Positions 4,982 to 55,696 of a DNA stretch of 57,791 bases are shown here, piece after piece (positions within the stretch are counted from its first letter, which is position 1; the number at the start of each line of letters is the position of its first letter). Source of the stretch: an uncultured Candidatus Saccharibacteria bacterium (lineage in GTDB: Bacteria > Patescibacteriota > Minisyncoccia > Phycocordibacterales > SBAW01); assembly GCA_964355655.1 (NCBI GenBank), contig CAYHDT010000005.1, positions 1 through 57,791 of the forward strand. Reading direction: 5' to 3'. The notes below the pieces were generated by a model. It was not told where the DNA came from and did no database searches. It saw only the letters and a program-made list of their open reading frames with translations. The position numbers were made by a program, and so were the translations under genes.

Positions 4982-5140
4982 ATGTCTCAAGATAGATTGA
5001 TAAAATTACAGTGTTCGAAGTGCAAGCGCATCAACTACTGGACCTCCAAGAATAAAAAGTTGGTGACGCGCAAAATCGAGCTTAAGAAGTTCTGCAACTG
5101 GTGCCGCGCCTCCACTGTGCACAAAGAGGCTAAGAAGTAG
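4982..5140 (+). CDS. rpmG: 50S ribosomal protein L33 (52 aa, Zn-binding type); not in ORF track
   Basis: MSQDRLIKLQCSKCKRINYWTSKNKKLVTRKIELKKFCNWCRASTVHKEAKK; two CxxC pairs. Confidence 0.95.
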   Translation: MSQDRLIKLQCSKCKRINYWTSKNKKLVTRKIELKKFCNWCRASTVHKEAKK

Positions 5141-5150
5141 TTATCCACAG

Positions 5151-5173
5151 TTTCCAAGGACTCTCCTTGGAAA
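5151..5173. repeat. AAGG-N5-CCTT family hairpin
   Basis: TTTCCAAGG-ACTCT-CCTTGGAAA. Confidence 0.7.
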
Positions 5174-5183
5174 TTTTCTTTTT

Positions 5184-5257
5184 TGGCGGGCGATGAAGGA
5201 ATCGAACCTTCAATAACGGTTTTGGAGACCGTTGTGATACCGTTTCACCAATCGCCC
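5184..5257 (-). tRNA. tRNA-Trp(CCA), CCA end encoded
   Basis: GGGCGAT/ATCGCCC acceptor stem, CTCCAAA loop, GGTTCGATTCC T arm. Confidence 0.95.
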
Positions 5258-5268
5258 GTACGCGCATC

Positions 5269-6111
5269 TTAGCGCGAAAGGAATTTTTTTGAAAGTCGCA
5301 GAGCCTCTTTTTTGCCGCCCACCCAGTGTATGTCTTTGTGGCGCTTAAACCACCGGTTTTGGCGTTTTGCATACTGCTCTTCTCCGCGGACAATCGCATC
5401 CGCCAACTGCTTTTTAGTTATCTTTTTATCCAGATAGTCGGCTAATAAGGCAAACTCAAATCCCAACTCCAAGAATCTTTTTTTAGACAGTGCGGCGCGG
5501 AGTTTTTTTGCTTCGGCTACCATACCGAGCTTTAGGCGCGCCGTGACGCCCGCGCGGATGTTTTTAGATTTTTTTAAGCCCAGCCACAGCACCCGGTAGG
5601 GGGGCTCGCGCACCAGGCTTGGCACGGTGCCGAGAGTTTTCGCTATCTCTATCGCGCGGATCATCCGTACCGGATTGCGCTTGTCTACGCGTTTGGCGCT
5701 GGCCGGGTCGATTTTTTGCAGTATCGCAAAAAGCTGCGCAGGAGACTTTTTAGCAAGCGCCGCGCGGAGTGTTTTATCCGGCGCGACTTTCGGCAGGCGC
5801 CATCCGCGCAAAAAAGCATCGGCATAAAGCCCGGCTCCGCCGACTACAATAGGTATTCTAGTATTTTGCAAAATACTGGAACAGATTTTCGCCGCATCTT
5901 TTTGGTACTGGCCGACGCTGTATTGGCGGCGCGGGTCGGCAACTCCCACCATGTGGCCTCTCTCCGCGCGCGAGATGACAGCCATGCCCCTATAGAGCTG
6001 CCGGCTGTCGGCCGAGATAATCTCCCCGTTCAGTTTTTTAGCAAGCCAAATGCCGAGCGAGCTCTTGCCCGAGGCGGTCGGGCCCACAATAGCTATAACT
6101 TTATGCTTCAT
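5269..6111 (-). CDS. miaA: tRNA dimethylallyltransferase
   Basis: GPTASGKS, IISADSRQLY, VGGAGLY, YAKRQ..WF. Confidence 0.95.
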   Translation of the reverse strand: MKHKVIAIVGPTASGKSSLGIWLAKKLNGEIISADSRQLYRGMAVISRAERGHMVGVADPRRQYSVGQYQKDAAKICSSILQNTRIPIVVGGAGLYADAFLRGWRLPKVAPDKTLRAALAKKSPAQLFAILQKIDPASAKRVDKRNPVRMIRAIEIAKTLGTVPSLVREPPYRVLWLGLKKSKNIRAGVTARLKLGMVAEAKKLRAALSKKRFLELGFEFALLADYLDKKITKKQLADAIVRGEEQYAKRQNRWFKRHKDIHWVGGKKEALRLSKKFLSR

Positions 6112-7096: not shown

Positions 7097-7244
7097 TTGT
7101 GCCGGGAGAGAGAATCGGTCACAACTCCCGTCGGGCCGTCGCCCGCCGGGGTCGCGACCCCGGCTCGCGGTCCAGCAGGTGCTGGACATCGCTCCGCCTT
7201 TCGATTCTCGCAAAAACTTCGTTTTGTGCCGGGAGAGAGAATCG
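7097..7244 (-). mobile_element. ~106-bp GC-rich mini-element at tRNA-Leu 3' end, flanked by a 21-bp direct repeat
   Basis: TTGTGCCGGGAGAGAGAATCG at 7097-7117 and 7224-7244; internal hairpins. Confidence 0.75.
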
Positions 7245-7310
7245 AACTCTCATGATGTTGCCATCGCGGGATTTTGAGTCCCGTGCGTCTACCAATTCCG
7301 CCATCCCGGC
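7227..7310 (-). tRNA. tRNA-Leu(CAA)
   Basis: GCCGGGA/TCCCGGC acceptor stem, CTCAAAA loop, long variable arm. Confidence 0.95.
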
Positions 7311-40485: not shown

Positions 40486-41249
40486 TACGCCGGCCTGCGG
40501 TAGCGGTTAAATAGCCGCCAGAGGAAATACAGTACCAGGAGCGCCGCTACCGGGTAAAAGATGCCCGCGCTGCCGATAATAAAGTTAAGCAGGGTAAGCA
40601 GATACAGATAAAGGGTCCAGAGGATAAACCAAAAAGTGCCTGTCGGGTCGGTAGTGGCTTGCGCGACCGTCCCGGCGCCCAACACCTCGCCGGAACGATC
40701 GCCCAGGTTAACCTTGGCGGCCGCTATTTGGCCGTCGATAGTGTCGGAGAGCGTCGCGCGCCCGCTGTCGATGAACTTAAAGACCGGTGCCGTGGCATTG
40801 GCCGCGGCGGGGGAAAAGCCGGCTATGCTGTCCTGGATTTTTTGCGAAGATTCGACCGGTGCGGCGGCCTGTGCGACTGTATCCGCTGGCTGCGGCTTTG
40901 CGGCGATGCTGAAAGTCTCGGATTGTCTCTCTACAACCTCGGTGCCTTTCTTCAGCTCGGCGACAACCGTGTGCGAGCCTTTCAGGGGCTTCCAGGATAC
41001 CGATACTACCGACGCTTCGTTTGCATTAAGCGACACCGGCACACTGCCGATAGCCGCCGCCCCTTCGCTGAACTGCATCGTACCGGTAAAAGCGGACGCG
41101 TCCTCGTTGGCGATGACGGCGTGGATAATCACCGTTTCTCCCTCGACTACCGCCGACCGCGACAGAAAGAGCGACTGCTTGGCAAACCCCGCCCCAAAAG
41201 CGATATAAGGAGCCGCTAATAGTGCGAGCAATAACGCGTATTTCATCAT
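40482..41249 (-). CDS. exported Ig-like (CARDB-like) protein with C-terminal TM
   Basis: Signal peptide, beta-rich domain, C-terminal hydrophobic helices. Confidence 0.7.
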   Translation of the reverse strand: MMKYALLLALLAAPYIAFGAGFAKQSLFLSRSAVVEGETVIIHAVIANEDASAFTGTMQFSEGAAAIGSVPVSLNANEASVVSVSWKPLKGSHTVVAELKKGTEVVERQSETFSIAAKPQPADTVAQAAAPVESSQKIQDSIAGFSPAAANATAPVFKFIDSGRATLSDTIDGQIAAAKVNLGDRSGEVLGAGTVAQATTDPTGTFWFILWTLYLYLLTLLNFIIGSAGIFYPVAALLVLYFLWRLFNRYRRPAY

Positions 41250-41263
41250 GCTATTATTATTGC

Positions 41264-42205
41264 ATGAGATTTTTTAGGTGGTGCAAGCGGCTTTTGGTTC
41301 CGCATCACGAAAACGCCTATCGCCCGCATCTTTTGCGCCGCGGCTCGCTTGTATTTTTGCTCGCGGTGGCGCTTTTGGCTGAAGGTGCACTAGTCTTCAA
41401 TCTTATGGCCCGGCACGGGGGAGCGGGCTTTATGGCCGCGGTGATACAAAGCGAGATTATTTCGCTTACCAACTCGGAGCGCGCGCAAAATAAAATAGCT
41501 GTTCTCGCGGAAAATACTCTCCTTAACCAGTCCGCACAAGCTAAAGCTGATGATATGGCCACAAAGGGCTATTTTGCGCACAATAGCCCGGACGGCACGC
41601 AGCCTTGGAGCTGGATAGACGCCGCCGGATACGATTATCAGTACGCGGGGGAAAATTTGGCCGTTCGATTCGTCGATTCGAAAGACGTCGTTGTCGGTTG
41701 GATGGCGTCGCCGACGCACCGCGCCAACATTGTCAAGCCGGCGTACACTGAGGTGGGCGTTGGCATCGCGCAAGGCATGTATAAAGGCCAAATAGCGACG
41801 TTTGTGGTGCAGCATTTTGCAAAACCGTCGGCCAAGGCGCTCGCTGCGCGGGCGAGCGGGCAGGTACTGGGCGCCGAAATAGGTCCTCCGCCGTCGCTAA
41901 CCGACACGGCCCTGCGCACTGCGGGCAAGATTATTTCCGAACCAAGGCAGACGACCGCGTGGGTACTGGGCGGGATAATCGCTCTTCTCGCGCTGGCGCT
42001 CGTCATCGCTTTTTTCCACCATGTGCAGGTACAGGCGCGCGACCTTTTGGTGCCGGGGACCATGGTTGCAGTCGTTGCTTTGACGCTCCTTGTTATCAAC
42101 ACAAACTTTCTTTCATCAACTATTACGGTAACTGCGCAGGAGGCGGGGGTTGCGGGCTACCATGGAGTAGTATTGACGCCCGAAGCCGGCTACTCGGAAC
42201 GGTAA
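41264..42205 (+). CDS. CAP/SCP-domain membrane protein
   Basis: AQAKADDM..GYFAH, AGENLA, WMASPTHRANI. Confidence 0.88.
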   Translation: MRFFRWCKRLLVPHHENAYRPHLLRRGSLVFLLAVALLAEGALVFNLMARHGGAGFMAAVIQSEIISLTNSERAQNKIAVLAENTLLNQSAQAKADDMATKGYFAHNSPDGTQPWSWIDAAGYDYQYAGENLAVRFVDSKDVVVGWMASPTHRANIVKPAYTEVGVGIAQGMYKGQIATFVVQHFAKPSAKALAARASGQVLGAEIGPPPSLTDTALRTAGKIISEPRQTTAWVLGGIIALLALALVIAFFHHVQVQARDLLVPGTMVAVVALTLLVINTNFLSSTITVTAQEAGVAGYHGVVLTPEAGYSER

Positions 42206-49001: not shown

Positions 49002-51149
49002 ATGGCTAATTTTAAACTCTCGACCCACCACACGCCTGCCGGCGACCAGCCCAAGGCCATCGAGGCTCTGATACAGGGTCTTACGCGCGGCGAGCGGCAC
49101 CAAACCCTGCTGGGGGTGACCGGTTCGGGCAAGACTTTTACCGCGGCTAATGTTATTGCCGCGCTCGACAAGCCCACGCTGGTTATAGCCCACAACAAAA
49201 CGCTGGCCGCCCAGCTGGCGCAGGAGTACCGGGACTTTTTTCCCGATGCAGCGGTGCACTATTTTGTCTCGTACTACGACTACTATCAGCCGGAGGCGTA
49301 CATGGCGCACTCCGACACTTACATAGAAAAGGAGGCGCAAATAAACGAAGAGATAGAGCGCTTGCGCCACGCTTCGACGCAGGCCCTGCTGACGCGCAAA
49401 GATGTGATAGTAGTCGCCTCGGTATCCTGCATTTACGGCCTGGGGAGCCCCGAAGAGTATCGCAAAGTGCACCTCGAGCTGAAATCAGGCATCAAAAAGA
49501 ACCGCGCGGAGCTTATCCGCGAGCTCATCGGCGTGTACTTTGAGCGCACAAATGCCGACTTAACCCCCGGCACCTTTAGGGCATTGGGCAACAGTGTGGA
49601 AATAATGCCGACGGGCGAGCGGGTGCTGTACCGCGTCGAGTTCGCCCATTCGACGGGCTCAGGGCAAGAGGGCGAGCAAATCGGCAAACTGCGCATTATA
49701 GACGCGGTTACCCGCGCAGAAATAAATCAAGGACCGTCCTCCATTTTTTTGTTTCCGGCCAAGCATTACGTTACCCCTGAGCATGAGCGAGCGCGCGCCA
49801 TCGCGGATATTCGCGCGGAGCTCAAGGCCCAGCTCGCCAAGTTTGAGCGTGCGGGCAAGCTGCTTGAAGCCGAGCGTCTGAAACGCCGCACCAACTATGA
49901 CTTGGCGATGATACGCGAGGTGGGCTACTGCAACGGGATAGAAAACTATTCCCGCCATTTTGACGGCCGGAAGGCCGGCGAACCCGCACACTCTCTATTG
50001 GAATATTTTCCGCACAAAAAAGACGGCACGCCCGACTTTCTGACTATTATAGACGAGAGCCATGTAACGGTGCCGCAGATAGGCGGCATGTACGCGGGCG
50101 ACCGCGCCCGCAAGGAAACACTGATAGATTTCGGTTTCCGGCTGCCGAGCGCTTTAGACAACCGGCCGCTGCGGTTTGAGGAATTTGAGGAGCGGGTAGG
50201 GCAGGTTATCTATACGTCAGCGACGCCGGGGCCGTATGAAAAAGAAAAGAGCGGCAAGAATATAGTCGAGCAGATTGTCCGGCCGACCGGTCTTTTGGAT
50301 CCGATTATTGATATTCGCCCGGTTACCAGCGGCGCGGTTCTAAAGGACTCTCCTTTGGCTCCCCGTCTGAATTCCAAAGGTTTAGCCTTTGTTTCAAAGG
50401 CTAAACCTTTGGAATCGTATCAAGGACAGGTCCAGGATGTGATAGAAGAGGTGGCAAAAGTGGTCAAGCGCGGCAACCGCGTGCTTATCACCACGCTTAC
50501 CAAAAAGATGGCCGAAGACTTAAACGACTACTTGAAAGAGCGCGGCATAAAGTCGACTTACCTGCACAGCGACGTAGAGACGCTGGAGCGGATTGAAATA
50601 CTGACCAGCCTGCGCCGCGGCGAGTACGATGTGTTGGTGGGCGTCAACCTCCTGCGCGAGGGGCTCGACCTCCCCGAGGTGGAACTGGTGGCGATCCTCG
50701 ATGCCGACAAAGAAGGGTTTTTACGCAGCGAGGTATCGCTGATACAAACCATTGGCCGAGCCGCGCGCAACAGCGCGGGACGGGTTATTTTGTATGCCGA
50801 CCAGGAGACGCCTTCTTTAGTTAAAGCAGTGGGGGAAACCCGCCGCCGCCGTACTGCGCAGGAAGCGTACAATAAAAAGCACGGGATTACGCCGACCACT
50901 ATCATAAAAAATATAAAAGATATTACCGAGGAGCTCCGTAGCGAACATTCTAAAGCGATAGTTACTATGCTCGAGGTGGACAAAGAGCTGTATAAAAAGA
51001 ATCCGCGCCAATTTATCGCGGCTAAAAAACGCGAGATGGCCGAGGCGGTCAAGGAGCTCGACTTTGAGTCGGCAGCTCTTATCCGTGATGAGATTTTAGC
51101 CTTGACCGGAGGAAATGCTAAAAAGAGGCCAAAAAAGCCCAAAAAATAA
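49002..51149 (+). CDS. uvrB: excinuclease ABC subunit B
   Basis: [44 protein letters not shown]. Confidence 0.98.
50342..50415. repeat. three AAGG-N5-CCTT units in frame in uvrB
   Basis: AAAGG-ACTCT-CCTTT followed by a 21-bp inverted repeat at 50371-50415. Confidence 0.85.
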
Positions 51150-51188
51150 GGGTATTTTGGTAGCAAGGTTTAACCTTGCTATAAAAGC

Positions 51189-51217
51189 TTGACAAGAGTC
51201 AATAGGGGGTGTATGAT
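51189..51217 (+). promoter_or_regulatory. consensus sigma70 promoter
   Basis: TTGACA-N17-TATGAT. Confidence 0.75.
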
Positions 51218-51223
51218 AGTGTT

Positions 51224-51411
51224 CTGACGTCGGGGCCGTACGTTTTCGCAGGATGAGGTGCTCATAGCTTTGCTAGACCCTCTGATGTGATACAAGCGGC
51301 AGCTTGAGAGGAGCAATCCTTCCCCGACGTCCGCTCTTTCGTTCAGATGGCGCTCCGAGAGCGACATCTCAGCCCCGCAGCCCCTCACGACAGTGAGAGT
51401 GGCGCGGGGCT
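51224..51411 (+). ncRNA. candidate structured non-coding RNA, family unknown
   Basis: GACGTCGGGG/CCCCGACGTC closing helix of a branched domain, plus two further hairpins. Confidence 0.55.
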
Positions 51412-51477
51412 ACCTTATACCTAAACGAGGGTATAATTACCCTCAGATTCTAACGATCCAGCTCAGGGAGAGGGACT

Positions 51478-51576
51478 ATGTCTACTGGTGTAATAGCGAC
51501 GTTTGTCTTTCTACTTATCTTCTGCGGAGCGCTCATGACTCCGCCTAATACTCGCCAGCCGCGAGTTGACTCATGA
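51478..51576 (+). CDS. small hydrophobic protein (32 aa); not in ORF track
   Basis: MSTGVIATFVFLLIFCGALMTPPNTRQPRVDS; GGAG/GGGA SD. Confidence 0.5.
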   Translation: MSTGVIATFVFLLIFCGALMTPPNTRQPRVDS

Positions 51577-51670
51577 CCAGTCTTGAGTGGTTTGGCCTGG
51601 CGGATATCGTATCGCTGTTCGGGTCGCTGCTTTGGCCCGCCAGTTTTTGCAGAAGCTCCGGAAACTCCGG

Positions 51671-51714
51671 AGCCCGCCCGAACGTACGTTCAGTACGGGC
51701 GGGCTTTTTCTTTT
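51671..51714 (+). terminator. intrinsic terminator
   Basis: AGCCCGCCCG...CGGGCGGGCT followed by a T-tract. Confidence 0.8.
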
Positions 51715-51818
51715 TGTACTGCAAAATGTTATACTACTTGTGTACATAGCTGACCCCTCGGGCAATCCGTGGGGCTAGTCTGTTGCCGCCAAGAGCAAGC
51801 TCTTGGCCAATAAACAAG

Positions 51819-54413
<2,595 letters not shown>

Positions 54414-54421
54414 CTGCGCCT

Positions 54422-55696
54422 ATGCAGTTGGAGCAATTTAAAAAGAAAATGAAGCGCATCCCGGACTCTCCCGGAGTGTACTTCTTTTTAGGAAAGAACA
54501 AGAAGGTGCTCTACATCGGCAAGGCCACTAGCCTGCGCGACCGTACGCGGAGCTACTTTGCCGCCGACCTTGCGGCAAACCGCAACCCGCTTATTGTGCA
54601 GATGCTCCAAAAAGCGCAGACGCTGGAGTGGCGCGAGACCGACTCAGTGCTTGAGGCGCTGCTGCTTGAAGCTGCGCTCATACGCTCGCACAAGCCCCCG
54701 GCCAATACCGATCTTAAAGACGATAAGAGTTTTAATTATGTCGTCATTACACAGGAAGAGTATCCGCGGGTGCTGGTGATAAGAGGAAAAAATCTAACCG
54801 CGGCTCCTAAGGCCAAAAAAATATTCGGCCCTTTCCCGCACGGCCTTCAATTGCGCGAAGCTATGAAGCTTATCCGGAAGATTTTTCCATATCGCGACAC
54901 GTGCACGCCGTGCAACATTACAAGGCGAAACCTTGTTAACAAGGTTTCGCCTTGTAAACCGTGCTTCAACTACCAACTGGGCCTGTGTCCGGGCGTGTGT
55001 GCGGGGGCGGTGTCCAAGCAAGAGTACGGCCGCAATGTCCGCCACATTGTACTGTTGTTTGAGGGCAAGAAAAAACAGCTTATCAAGGCGCTTAATAAAG
55101 AGATGCGCGCCGCGGCAAAAACGGAGGAGTTTGAGCAAGCCAAAGAGCTCCAGCGGCAAATGTATGCGCTTCAGCATATCCAGGATATTTCGCTGATAAA
55201 GGAAGAATATCGTAGCCCCTCGACCGCTCTCGGGTCAATTCGGTCGGACCGAATTGAGGCATACGACATTGCGCACCTGCGGGGAAGTGCTGCGGTGGGC
55301 GTCATGGTGGTGGTAGAAGGCGGGGAGGCCGCCAAGGGGCAGTACCGCAAATTTAAAATAAAAAGTGCTAAAGCAGGCGATGACCCCGGCGCGCTGAAAG
55401 AAGTGCTTTCCCGCCGGCTGGGCCATGACGAATGGCCCCTGCCGCGCCTTATTGTCGTAGACGGCTCGACCGCGCAAATAAACGCCGCCCGCAATATATT
55501 GGCCGAGTACGGCATGGCTATCCCGGTCGTGGGTGTGGTCAAGGACGAAAAACACCGCCCGCGCAACATTGCCGGCGACCGCGGGCTGGTTAAAGAAAAA
55601 GAGCGCGAAATACTTTTGGCCAACAGCGAGGCACACCGCTTTGCGATAGGCTACCATCGCAAAACGAGCCGAAGGGAGTTGACGCTTGGTAAATAG
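54422..55696 (+). CDS. uvrC: excinuclease ABC subunit C (short form)
   Basis: GVY..LYIGKA.SLR.R, EALLLE, Cys cluster, IEAYDIAH, DG...Q. Confidence 0.93.
   Translation: MQLEQFKKKMKRIPDSPGVYFFLGKNKKVLYIGKATSLRDRTRSYFAADLAANRNPLIVQMLQKAQTLEWRETDSVLEALLLEAALIRSHKPPANTDLKDDKSFNYVVITQEEYPRVLVIRGKNLTAAPKAKKIFGPFPHGLQLREAMKLIRKIFPYRDTCTPCNITRRNLVNKVSPCKPCFNYQLGLCPGVCAGAVSKQEYGRNVRHIVLLFEGKKKQLIKALNKEMRAAAKTEEFEQAKELQRQMYALQHIQDISLIKEEYRSPSTALGSIRSDRIEAYDIAHLRGSAAVGVMVVVEGGEAAKGQYRKFKIKSAKAGDDPGALKEVLSRRLGHDEWPLPRLIVVDGSTAQINAARNILAEYGMAIPVVGVVKDEKHRPRNIAGDRGLVKEKEREILLANSEAHRFAIGYHRKTSRRELTLGK
54918..54957. repeat. perfect 40-bp palindrome in frame in uvrC
   Basis: TTACAAGGCGAAACCTTGTTAACAAGGTTTCGCCTTGTAA equals its own reverse complement. 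Confidence 0.9.

Follow-up and report, generated by a model that had tools for sequence, protein, structure and literature searches.

The window analysed here is the whole 57,791-nt stretch of contig CAYHDT010000005.1. Its nucleotide-excision-repair genes uvrB and uvrA are separated by a 669-nt gap that holds two adjacent, covarying hairpins, H1 and H2. Together they form a genuine structured RNA element, H1-H2, that has not been described before and has a narrow distribution, confined to one Paceibacteria-type clade of the Candidate Phyla Radiation (CPR); searches of the literature returned no description of it. An earlier note on the first third of this gap had proposed a promoter-driven structured RNA between uvrB and uvrA, on the + strand and outside the known families, and in these respects, including the location, our analysis bears it out. 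We tentatively favour, at a probability of about 0.4, a reading in which H1-H2 is a cis-acting structured leader module of an operon encoding small membrane peptides.

Structure and covariation of H1-H2

The uvrB-uvrA gaps of ten relatives were compared, and variants were added from Logan contigs of groundwater and freshwater metagenomes. The conserved module begins with a single-stranded junction, UUUCGUUCA, and continues through H1 into H2 (Table 1). We aligned nine sequences from one narrow clade, namely the window, the related loci L003, L009 and L051, and five variants rebuilt from Logan-contig difference tables. In this alignment 97.3% of cells are paired, and in six pairs both partners have changed, where shuffled alignments give 1.4 +/- 1.0; none of 500 shuffles reaches the observed score, and slid controls show 0-2 both-side changes. 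All cells of H1 are paired (100%), with two pairs changed on both sides (GAUG/CAUC, GGUG/CACC and GACG/CGUC). The corresponding figures for H2 are 96% and four pairs (CUCAC/GUGAG, CCUAC/GUAGG, CCCAC/GUGGG and CUUGC/GCGAG), and GCC/GGC also changes to GCU/AGC. RNAalifold independently yields the same structure, and the hairpins that the earlier note had drawn at 51345-69 and 51371-411 keep these positions both there and in the minimum-energy fold. Our covariance model R1 scores the window's H1-H2 at 107 bits.

The substitution pattern is that of an RNA read from the + strand. Changes on one side of a pair are C>U or A>G, and they keep the pairing, as G.U, on that strand only. Strand-specific changes that preserve wobbles are expected of RNA, not of DNA cruciforms. 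An AG-to-GA swap in one variant moves the bulged A of H2 by one position. The G.A mismatch and GAG loop of H1, the 8-bp base of H2 and the UUUCGUU of the junction are all invariant, and the invariance of the unpaired bases argues for a specific partner, either a protein or an RNase, over a hairpin that simply stabilises the RNA. In a third hairpin, H3, the substitutions 51428 A>G and 51440 C>U, seen in variants, likewise leave their pairs in place as wobbles. The L003 locus carries three tandem H1-like hairpins at its positions 5240-5365 (GGGGUGCU..GAGAGCACCCC, CUUGAUGGCGCC..GGCGACGUCAUCAAG and H1 itself), which suggests a duplication of the module.

The locus matches no known RNA family. Rfam 15 returned only five tRNAs at gathering thresholds across the whole window, and a permissive scan of 51050-51900 gave terminator-driven matches only, at 12-21 bits against thresholds of 40-140. 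Scans of the relatives L002, L003, L007, L008, L009, L013, L048 and L049 returned none at E <= 0.1-1, and ARAGORN found no tmRNA. These searches uphold the observation, first made by eye, that the segment bears no signature of RNase P, tmRNA, signal recognition particle RNA or a common riboswitch; no family reaches its gathering threshold there, 6S RNA included. 6S RNA folds into one long, irregular rod of ~180-200 nt, interrupted by a central bubble and closed by pairing of its 5' and 3' ends. At this locus both the minimum-energy fold and the consensus fold contain three independent domains (a 5' domain, H1 and H2), and the 5' and 3' ends are not paired with each other; a 6S identity was rejected. 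In being intergenic, GC-rich, built of covarying hairpins and narrow in phylogenetic range, the element resembles the orphan motifs of the Weinberg/Breaker type in Rfam. It is unlike them in its absence from Rfam 15 (no family at E = 0.1 save terminator similarity) and in having interchangeable flanking domains at one fixed locus.

The predicted folds are stable relative to dinucleotide shuffles, with z scores of -4.36 for 51220-51420, -5.7 for 51222-51715, -3.6 for the 5' domain (51224-51333) and -5.3 for the 3' hairpins (51334-51413). The minus strand also folds well (z = -3.74), so energy alone gives no strand. The 5' domain, with a minimum free energy of -45.8 kcal/mol, recurs only in metagenome contigs X11-X16, at 93-95% identity, and L003, L009 and L051 lack it. 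Among the contigs that have it, the outer 10-bp helix is invariant and changes cluster at 51238-41 and 51294-97/51303. The GCAA loop of the side hairpin at 51308-21 varies only to GUAA, which retains a GNRA loop. Two indel-bearing reconstructed variants, X12r6 and X13r7, carry paired insertions and substitutions that keep the minimum-energy architecture (helix 51235-43 with 51292-300). As modelled, the 5' domain is a real fold, but one that is specific to its lineage and hardly varies where it is found again; comparative support is confined to the two 3' hairpins.

Parts of the earlier structural description are revised by this comparison. All pairs listed for the 10-bp helix and its inner stems are complementary; the nested set of five inner stems is not confirmed, as it reaches -36.9 kcal/mol against -45.8 kcal/mol for the minimum-energy fold and conflicts with the side hairpin at 51308-21. 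Compensatory changes support H1-H2; the 10-bp helix and the inner stems have no such comparative support. The note had also suggested a switch in which CGGGGC (51231-36) pairs alternatively with GCCCCG (51372-77). L003, L009 and L051 keep GCCCCG and lack its partner; because CGGGGC lies in the lineage-specific 5' domain, the switch is not a conserved feature. A riboswitch, which would need a conserved aptamer and an expression platform joined by mutually exclusive pairing, was rejected on the same ground, together with the local, leader-independent burial of the downstream Shine-Dalgarno (SD) sequence and the lack of a downstream gene in the L009 type. As the note had stated, 51189-51411 holds no credible open reading frame (ORF), the only candidates being a 30-aa ORF starting at TTG and a 69-aa antisense ORF. 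A coding reading of the hairpins was rejected on a 1-nt indel in L003 and shifting stop codons in relatives.

Promoter, peptide genes and terminator

The promoter proposed in the earlier note, TTGACA-17-TATGAT, stands, and no other site on either strand of the gap resembles a strong promoter, even under relaxed criteria. A consensus scan at thresholds down to 8/12 matches found no internal or antisense promoter in the gap. The promoter block, GGGCTTGACAAG..GGGTGTAnGnT, is kept after uvrB in the window, L003, L009, L051/L008 and L049, even where each lineage has a different RNA downstream. At the other end of the unit, a terminator scan and a RybB-like Rfam alignment place the only strong terminator of the gap at 51655-51715, a compound intrinsic one whose first stem and TTTTTCTTTTT tract are common to L002, L003, L007 and L009. 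The scan reported no terminator at H2: the hairpin is followed by CUACCUUAUACC and not by a U tract, and the region after 51411 lacks the features of an intrinsic terminator that would end a 190-nt RNA. Because H2 has no U tract and the first convincing terminator lies at 51655-51715, we take the promoter-to-terminator unit to be ~490 nt, with a leader of ~254 nt. The length of ~190 nt given earlier is thus unsupported, and the RNA is probably not a self-contained species of that size.

The terminator itself has been remodelled in the window. A 31-nt GC hairpin, GCCCGCCCG..CGGGCGGGC (~51672-51704), is inserted between the ancestral terminator stem and the T tract, and it is absent from the otherwise 93% identical contig variants X9r7 and X10r1. 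In six metagenomes these 31-35 nt turn up by themselves in unrelated contigs; the insert may be a terminator cassette in common use or a very small mobile hairpin.

Downstream of the hairpins lie two small hydrophobic ORFs, ORF1 and ORF2, whose peptides each combine a transmembrane helix with a polar tail. Compared with the X9r7/X10r1 variant, which comes from two groundwater metagenomes, ORF1 shows seven differences, six synonymous and one L>V; third codon positions account for six of them (P about 0.007). This synonymous pattern identifies ORF1 as a real gene under purifying selection. ORF2 is kept in L003, X9, X11 and X12, and its six synonymous and seven hydrophobic-to-hydrophobic changes relative to L003 suggest that it is probably coding as well. 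The protein database held no homologue of ORF2, and neither the two ORFs nor the peptides of L007, L013 and L052 match Pfam, NCBIfam or PADLOC. Hydrophobic peptide genes directly after uvrB recur in the clade, in the window, L003, L007, L013 and L052. Unannotated genes for peptides of 31-34 aa were seen after uvrB at ~5275-5373 of L007, ~2818-2913 of L013 and 5121-5225 of L052; gene callers missed nearly all of them. A partial match to the start of ORF1 at 41777 was dismissed as chance, lying inside a 327-aa ORF on the + strand (41222-42205).

These features lead us to the leader reading. A Paceibacteria-type groundwater CPR bacterium would transcribe an mRNA of ~490 nt from the promoter to the compound terminator, and its leader would comprise, in order, the folded lineage-specific 5' domain, the junction, H1 and H2, ahead of ORF1 and ORF2. 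H1-H2 would serve as a + strand recognition element for a specific protein or RNase, presenting its G.A mismatch, GAG loop and bulges, and would set the stability or the translation of the peptide mRNA, as in leaders of the tisB, dinQ and hok type. We favour this reading because the gap is framed by a single strong promoter and a single strong terminator, with no U tract after H2, because in X9r7 the two ORFs and the terminator move together with H1-H2, and because post-uvrB hydrophobic peptide genes recur in the clade and are preceded by H1-H2 in one sub-clade.

Several observations weigh on the other side. The L009/L046/L047 type has a terminator directly after H1-H2 and no peptide ORF, and the module cannot be a leader there. 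Between H1-H2 and the ribosome-binding site there is no conserved alternative pairing, the occlusion of the ORF1 SD is local and unchanged after in silico removal of the leader, and ORF2 has no stop codon before the terminator. The covariation rests on about nine sequences of one clade, five of them reconstructed. RNA-seq, which the earlier note had named as a check, yielded neither the window's own sequence nor its transcript in any run searched. As for specific contacts between leader and gene, CUCUUUC (51334-40) was tried as an anti-Shine-Dalgarno sequence and rejected, since its pairing is lost in X9r7 and L003 and the ensemble prefers a local hairpin.

The occlusion of ORF1 brings type I toxin-antitoxin modules to mind. 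Its SD and AUG are predicted to pair locally with codons 8-12, with unpaired probabilities of 0.0-0.1 for the core SD bases. The locus shares with tisB/istR-1, dinQ/agrB, hok/sok and aapA1/isoA1 a strong promoter, a folded 5' untranslated region (UTR) of ~250 nt, an ORF of ~30 aa with a transmembrane helix and a buried SD, as well as a patchy, mosaic presence among close relatives and a position among DNA-damage genes. tisB and dinQ are SOS-linked. ORF1 and/or ORF2 could accordingly encode membrane-damaging peptides, each below the 60-aa limit for such toxins and ending in a polar tail, whose mRNA the long folded leader would keep inert until processing. Against this stand the peptide genes themselves, which are present in most relatives and in this resemble a conserved accessory gene rather than a toxin of sporadic occurrence, and the purifying selection on ORF1. 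The consensus scan found no minus-strand promoter-like site in 51150-51830, even at 8/12 or with an extended -10, and no antitoxin RNA was detected. Comparisons with Hok, Ldr, TisB, Fst and other toxin families, PADLOC and NCBIfam gave no match, and no sequence relation to a known toxin or leader was seen. Unlike type I toxin mRNAs, moreover, the conserved module here also occurs without a downstream peptide gene, in the L009 type. We regard a toxin-antitoxin-like module as unlikely.

A short word recurs across these RNAs. GAGAG occurs four times in the 257 nt of the window leader against 0.24 expected, an excess noticed post hoc; the sites are 51306 in the 5' domain, 51357 in the H1 loop, 51395 in the H2 arm and 51468 in the SD of ORF1. 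The RNAs of L003, L009 and L051 contain three copies each, non-homologous 5' domains included (L003 5286, 5353 and 5392; L009 3352, 3412 and 3481), and CTCTC, the word on the other strand, has zero occurrences in these RNAs. The counts, although post hoc, fit a shared binding motif that may link the leader with the ribosome-binding site. A short purine motif that is repeated in hairpin loops and arms and present once more in the SD of the downstream gene recalls leaders of the CsrA/RsmE type and the sponge RNAs CsrB and RsmZ, as do the tandem H1-like hairpins of L003. The motif here is GAG/GAGAG and not the GGA of the A(N)GGA consensus of CsrA targets.

Mosaic arrangement among relatives and competing explanations

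Only 51334 to ~51413 recurs in L003, L009 (= L010-12, L046, L047) and L051, at 82-88% identity between flanks that cannot be aligned. At least five 5' domains, unrelated to one another, precede H1-H2, and at least three different arrangements follow it: H3 with ORF1 and ORF2 (window type), a different H3 with ORF2 (L003 type), or a terminator directly (L009 type). Unrelated upstream sequence joins the conserved block exactly at 51337 in X9r7, X10r1 and X11r3/r4, and the block of homology shared with X9r7/X10r1, 51337-51746, spans H1-H2, ORF1, ORF2 and the terminator, which there follow a 5' flank of foreign sequence. An exact-pattern scan of GTDB genomes gave 32 matches, of which one is real (L040, on the same contig as L003); the others were rejected as chance matches in high-GC sequence. 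Among GTDB species representatives only the L003 genome carries the block, and a scan of JGI metagenomes gave two contigs, both identical to L009. H1-H2 was not found in a viral collection scan or in BLAST searches of phages and plasmids, nor did covariance model R1 detect diverged copies in L002, L004, L007, L013, L048, L049 or L052.

Such restriction might indicate that the region has no specific function, being a GC-rich intergenic leftover of rearrangements whose conservation reflects recent common ancestry. The very narrow distribution, with one GTDB species representative and two JGI contigs, fits this idea, and most variants are more than 90% identical. A leftover is difficult to reconcile, however, with hairpins that stay 82-88% identical while their flanks become unalignable, with six both-side changes when 0 of 500 shuffles attain the observed scores, or with invariant loop and mismatch bases. 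We judge the absence of a function improbable.

The mosaic flanks and the sharp junction at 51337 also invite a DNA-level explanation, either a cluster of palindromes like repetitive extragenic palindromes (REPs) or miniature inverted-repeat transposable elements, or a recombination site for cassette exchange. The 10-bp perfect inverted termini of the 5' domain and the solitary occurrence of the 31-nt terminator hairpin in many unrelated contigs would suit such an element, and imperfect GC-rich palindromes between convergent or co-oriented genes are what REPs and bacterial interspersed mosaic elements look like. Those elements are repeated; here self-BLAST of seven sub-parts, a repeat search and the covariance model found no part more than once in the window or in any of 12 related loci, and GACGTCGGGG-like words, at 8 against 3.7 +/- 1.9 expected, are not enriched. 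With no second copy of any part, the REP-like alternative raised in the earlier note is rejected. The phage, plasmid and viral collections held no such element and no recombinase gene lies nearby, while the substitutions preserve wobbles on one strand and the unit has its own promoter. We give a DNA-level element of any of these kinds very little credence.

The L009/L051 type speaks for a different kind of RNA. It consists of the promoter, a 290-nt structured 5' region, H1-H2 and the terminator, without a convincing ORF; a 55-codon frame in L009 was rejected as a gene on its weak ribosome-binding site, its V>A, Q>P and D>G changes and the loss of its stop in L051. A freshwater metatranscriptome contig, X20, covers 3240-3385 of L009, and the uvrB and uvrA of that organism were undetected; the contig is of low depth and DNA carry-over is possible. 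Its five differences from L009 turn a GUGA loop into GCAA and lengthen the stem, which reads at sequence level as RNA-like evolution. The L049 gap was also seen to contain, at 5029-5400, the same post-uvrB promoter followed by a different, very stable RNA-like region of ~330 nt with its own terminator and no H1-H2; a promoter with a highly structured RNA therefore recurs at the locus non-homologously.

Taken together with the at least five unrelated 5' domains and the three tandem H1-like hairpins of L003, the ORF-less type and the X20 contig make a stand-alone or dual-function small RNA the main rival to the leader reading. The transcript or a processed piece of it would then act in trans, with H1-H2 as a protein-binding scaffold, the interchangeable 5' domain conferring a lineage-specific function and the ORFs merely sharing the terminator. 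Yet in the window neither a terminator nor a U tract follows H2, the ORFs accompany H1-H2 in X9r7/X10r1, and the RNA evidence is one low-depth contig of possibly carried-over DNA. Typical small RNAs, furthermore, conserve their targeting part, whereas here that part would be the variable one. We consider a trans-acting RNA possible and yet doubtful.

The form of H1-H2 also recalls a class of phage RNAs. Put RNA binds the zinc-binding domain of RNA polymerase beta' and suppresses termination and pausing. Nascent H1-H2 might in the same way bind RNA polymerase as a processive antiterminator and permit read-through into uvrA-uvrC. The putL and putR RNAs of HK022 are ~70 nt long, form two adjacent stem-loops at or ~270 nt downstream of promoters and upstream of terminators, and depend on unpaired bases, among them a wedge base that is needed (PMC9378689). 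H1-H2 likewise consists of two adjacent stem-loops of ~66 nt with a 2-nt spacer and conserved unpaired bases; it lies 120-300 nt beyond a promoter and is followed by terminators and by genes on the same strand. In the window the promoter is ~120 nt upstream and the terminators ~250 nt downstream. An aquifer metatranscriptome contig, X27, contains ORF2 and the terminator of an L003-like relative and extends past the T tract, as read-through would predict, but it is of low depth and possibly derived from DNA. The resemblance is one of form only, to enterobacterial phage RNAs that act on the RNA polymerase of E. coli. The downstream genes here have a promoter of their own: uvrA keeps a conserved promoter and 5' hairpin in all relatives, those without H1-H2 included, and the window has even gained a second terminator hairpin. 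Antitermination of this kind strikes us as highly improbable.

On a more speculative view, H1-H2 could be the constant scaffold of a CPR-specific modular RNA, guide-like or acting as a sponge for a GAGAG-binding protein and so no ordinary leader, or else a cellular put-like RNA that makes RNA polymerase read into uvrA-uvrC. In the modular form, recombination at UUUCGUU may swap unrelated structured 5' domains of 100-300 nt, each bearing GNRA hairpins, at one fixed locus under one conserved promoter. We hold this view to be a long shot.

Genomic setting and significance

The H1-H2 unit is bounded downstream by the promoter of uvrA. The 5' UTR of uvrA contains a hairpin, CCCCUCGG..CCGUGGGG (51754-74), that is kept in all relatives examined (L002, L003, L004, L007, L009, L013 and L049) and is probably a regulatory element of uvrA-uvrC. 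A second palindrome, at 51788-807, was noted upstream of uvrA in the window and in L013.

The nearest proteins to the window's UvrB, at 84-88% identity, belong to CPR bacteria of the Kaiserbacteria, Adlerbacteria and Paceibacterota types, and the Hainich groundwater contig ERZ1292617 matches the window. The L003 locus (= the L040 record) is labelled 'Candidatus Saccharibacteria'; its UvrB and gene order fit Paceibacteria-type relatives, and the label may be wrong. The uvrB-uvrA gap is a small-gene island. In two relatives it houses a gene for a regulator of the ArsR/HTH_5 type (L002 5310-5942, L009 3621-3893), each such locus with a copy of a AGCUCCGGA..UCCGGAGCUUUUUCUUUU terminator, and the L002 gap additionally has a gene for a 92-aa CxxC protein. 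Elsewhere in the window, an exact 21-nt direct repeat lies at 7097-7117 and 7224-7244. One of its copies overlaps tRNA-Leu(caa) (7226-7310, minus strand) at the 3' end, and the repeat may be what is left of an integration site.

Table 1. Coordinates of the features of the uvrB-uvrA locus in the window
Feature	Position	Strand	Description
uvrB	49002-51149	+	715 aa; Pfam UvrB, UvrB_inter, Helicase_C, UVR; upstream flank
Promoter	51189-51217	+	sigma-70 type, TTGACA-17-TATGAT; 11/12 consensus match; +1 near 51223-51225
5' domain	51226-51331	+	outer helix 51226-35/51322-31; irregular rod with UAGC-UUU-GCUA hairpin 51265-75; side hairpin GAGGA-GCAA-UCCUU 51308-21
Junction	51334-51345	+	CUCUUUCGUUCA; conserved, single-stranded; conservation across unrelated 5' flanks starts at 51337; common to L009 and L051
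H1	51346-51368	+	GAUG-G-CGCU / nnGAG loop / AGCG-A-CAUC; 8 pairs
H2	51371-51411	+	17 pairs; invariant 8-bp base AGCCCCGC/GCGGGGCU; bulged A 51379; 3'-side bulges
H3	51427-51444	+	GAGGGUA-UAAU-UACCCUC; window type only; in minimum-energy fold
ORF1	51478-51576	+	32 aa, hydrophobic, MSTGVIATFVFLLIFCGALMTPPNTRQPRVDS; SD GGGAGAGGGA at 51466-75; SD-ORF region from 51463
ORF2 (probably coding)	51573-51749	+	MTSLEWFGLADIVSLFGSLLWPASFCRSSGNSG...; ATGA overlap with ORF1 stop; frame continues through terminator
Compound intrinsic terminator	51655-51715	+	stem GCUCCGGA/UCCGGAGC 51655-73; 31-nt GC hairpin ~51672-51704; T tract TTTTTCTTTTT 51705-15
uvrA promoter and 5' UTR	51727-51818	+	extended -10 TGTTATACT 51727-35; downstream boundary of unit
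uvrA	51819-54413	+	864 aa; Pfam UvrA_inter, ABC_tran
uvrC	54422-55696	+	Pfam UvrC_RNaseH_dom, GIY-YIG

To our knowledge, very few noncoding RNAs are known from CPR bacteria beyond the universal ones. The locus described here offers a concrete, covariation-supported element, two hairpins with invariant unpaired bases that are tied to genes for tiny membrane peptides and set among nucleotide-excision-repair genes. Because it is found in one narrow clade of uncultured organisms, its interest is for now that of specialists. If H1-H2 controls the peptides, it would be the first case of post-transcriptional control of small proteins in the CPR; an action in trans or on RNA polymerase would make it a new class.

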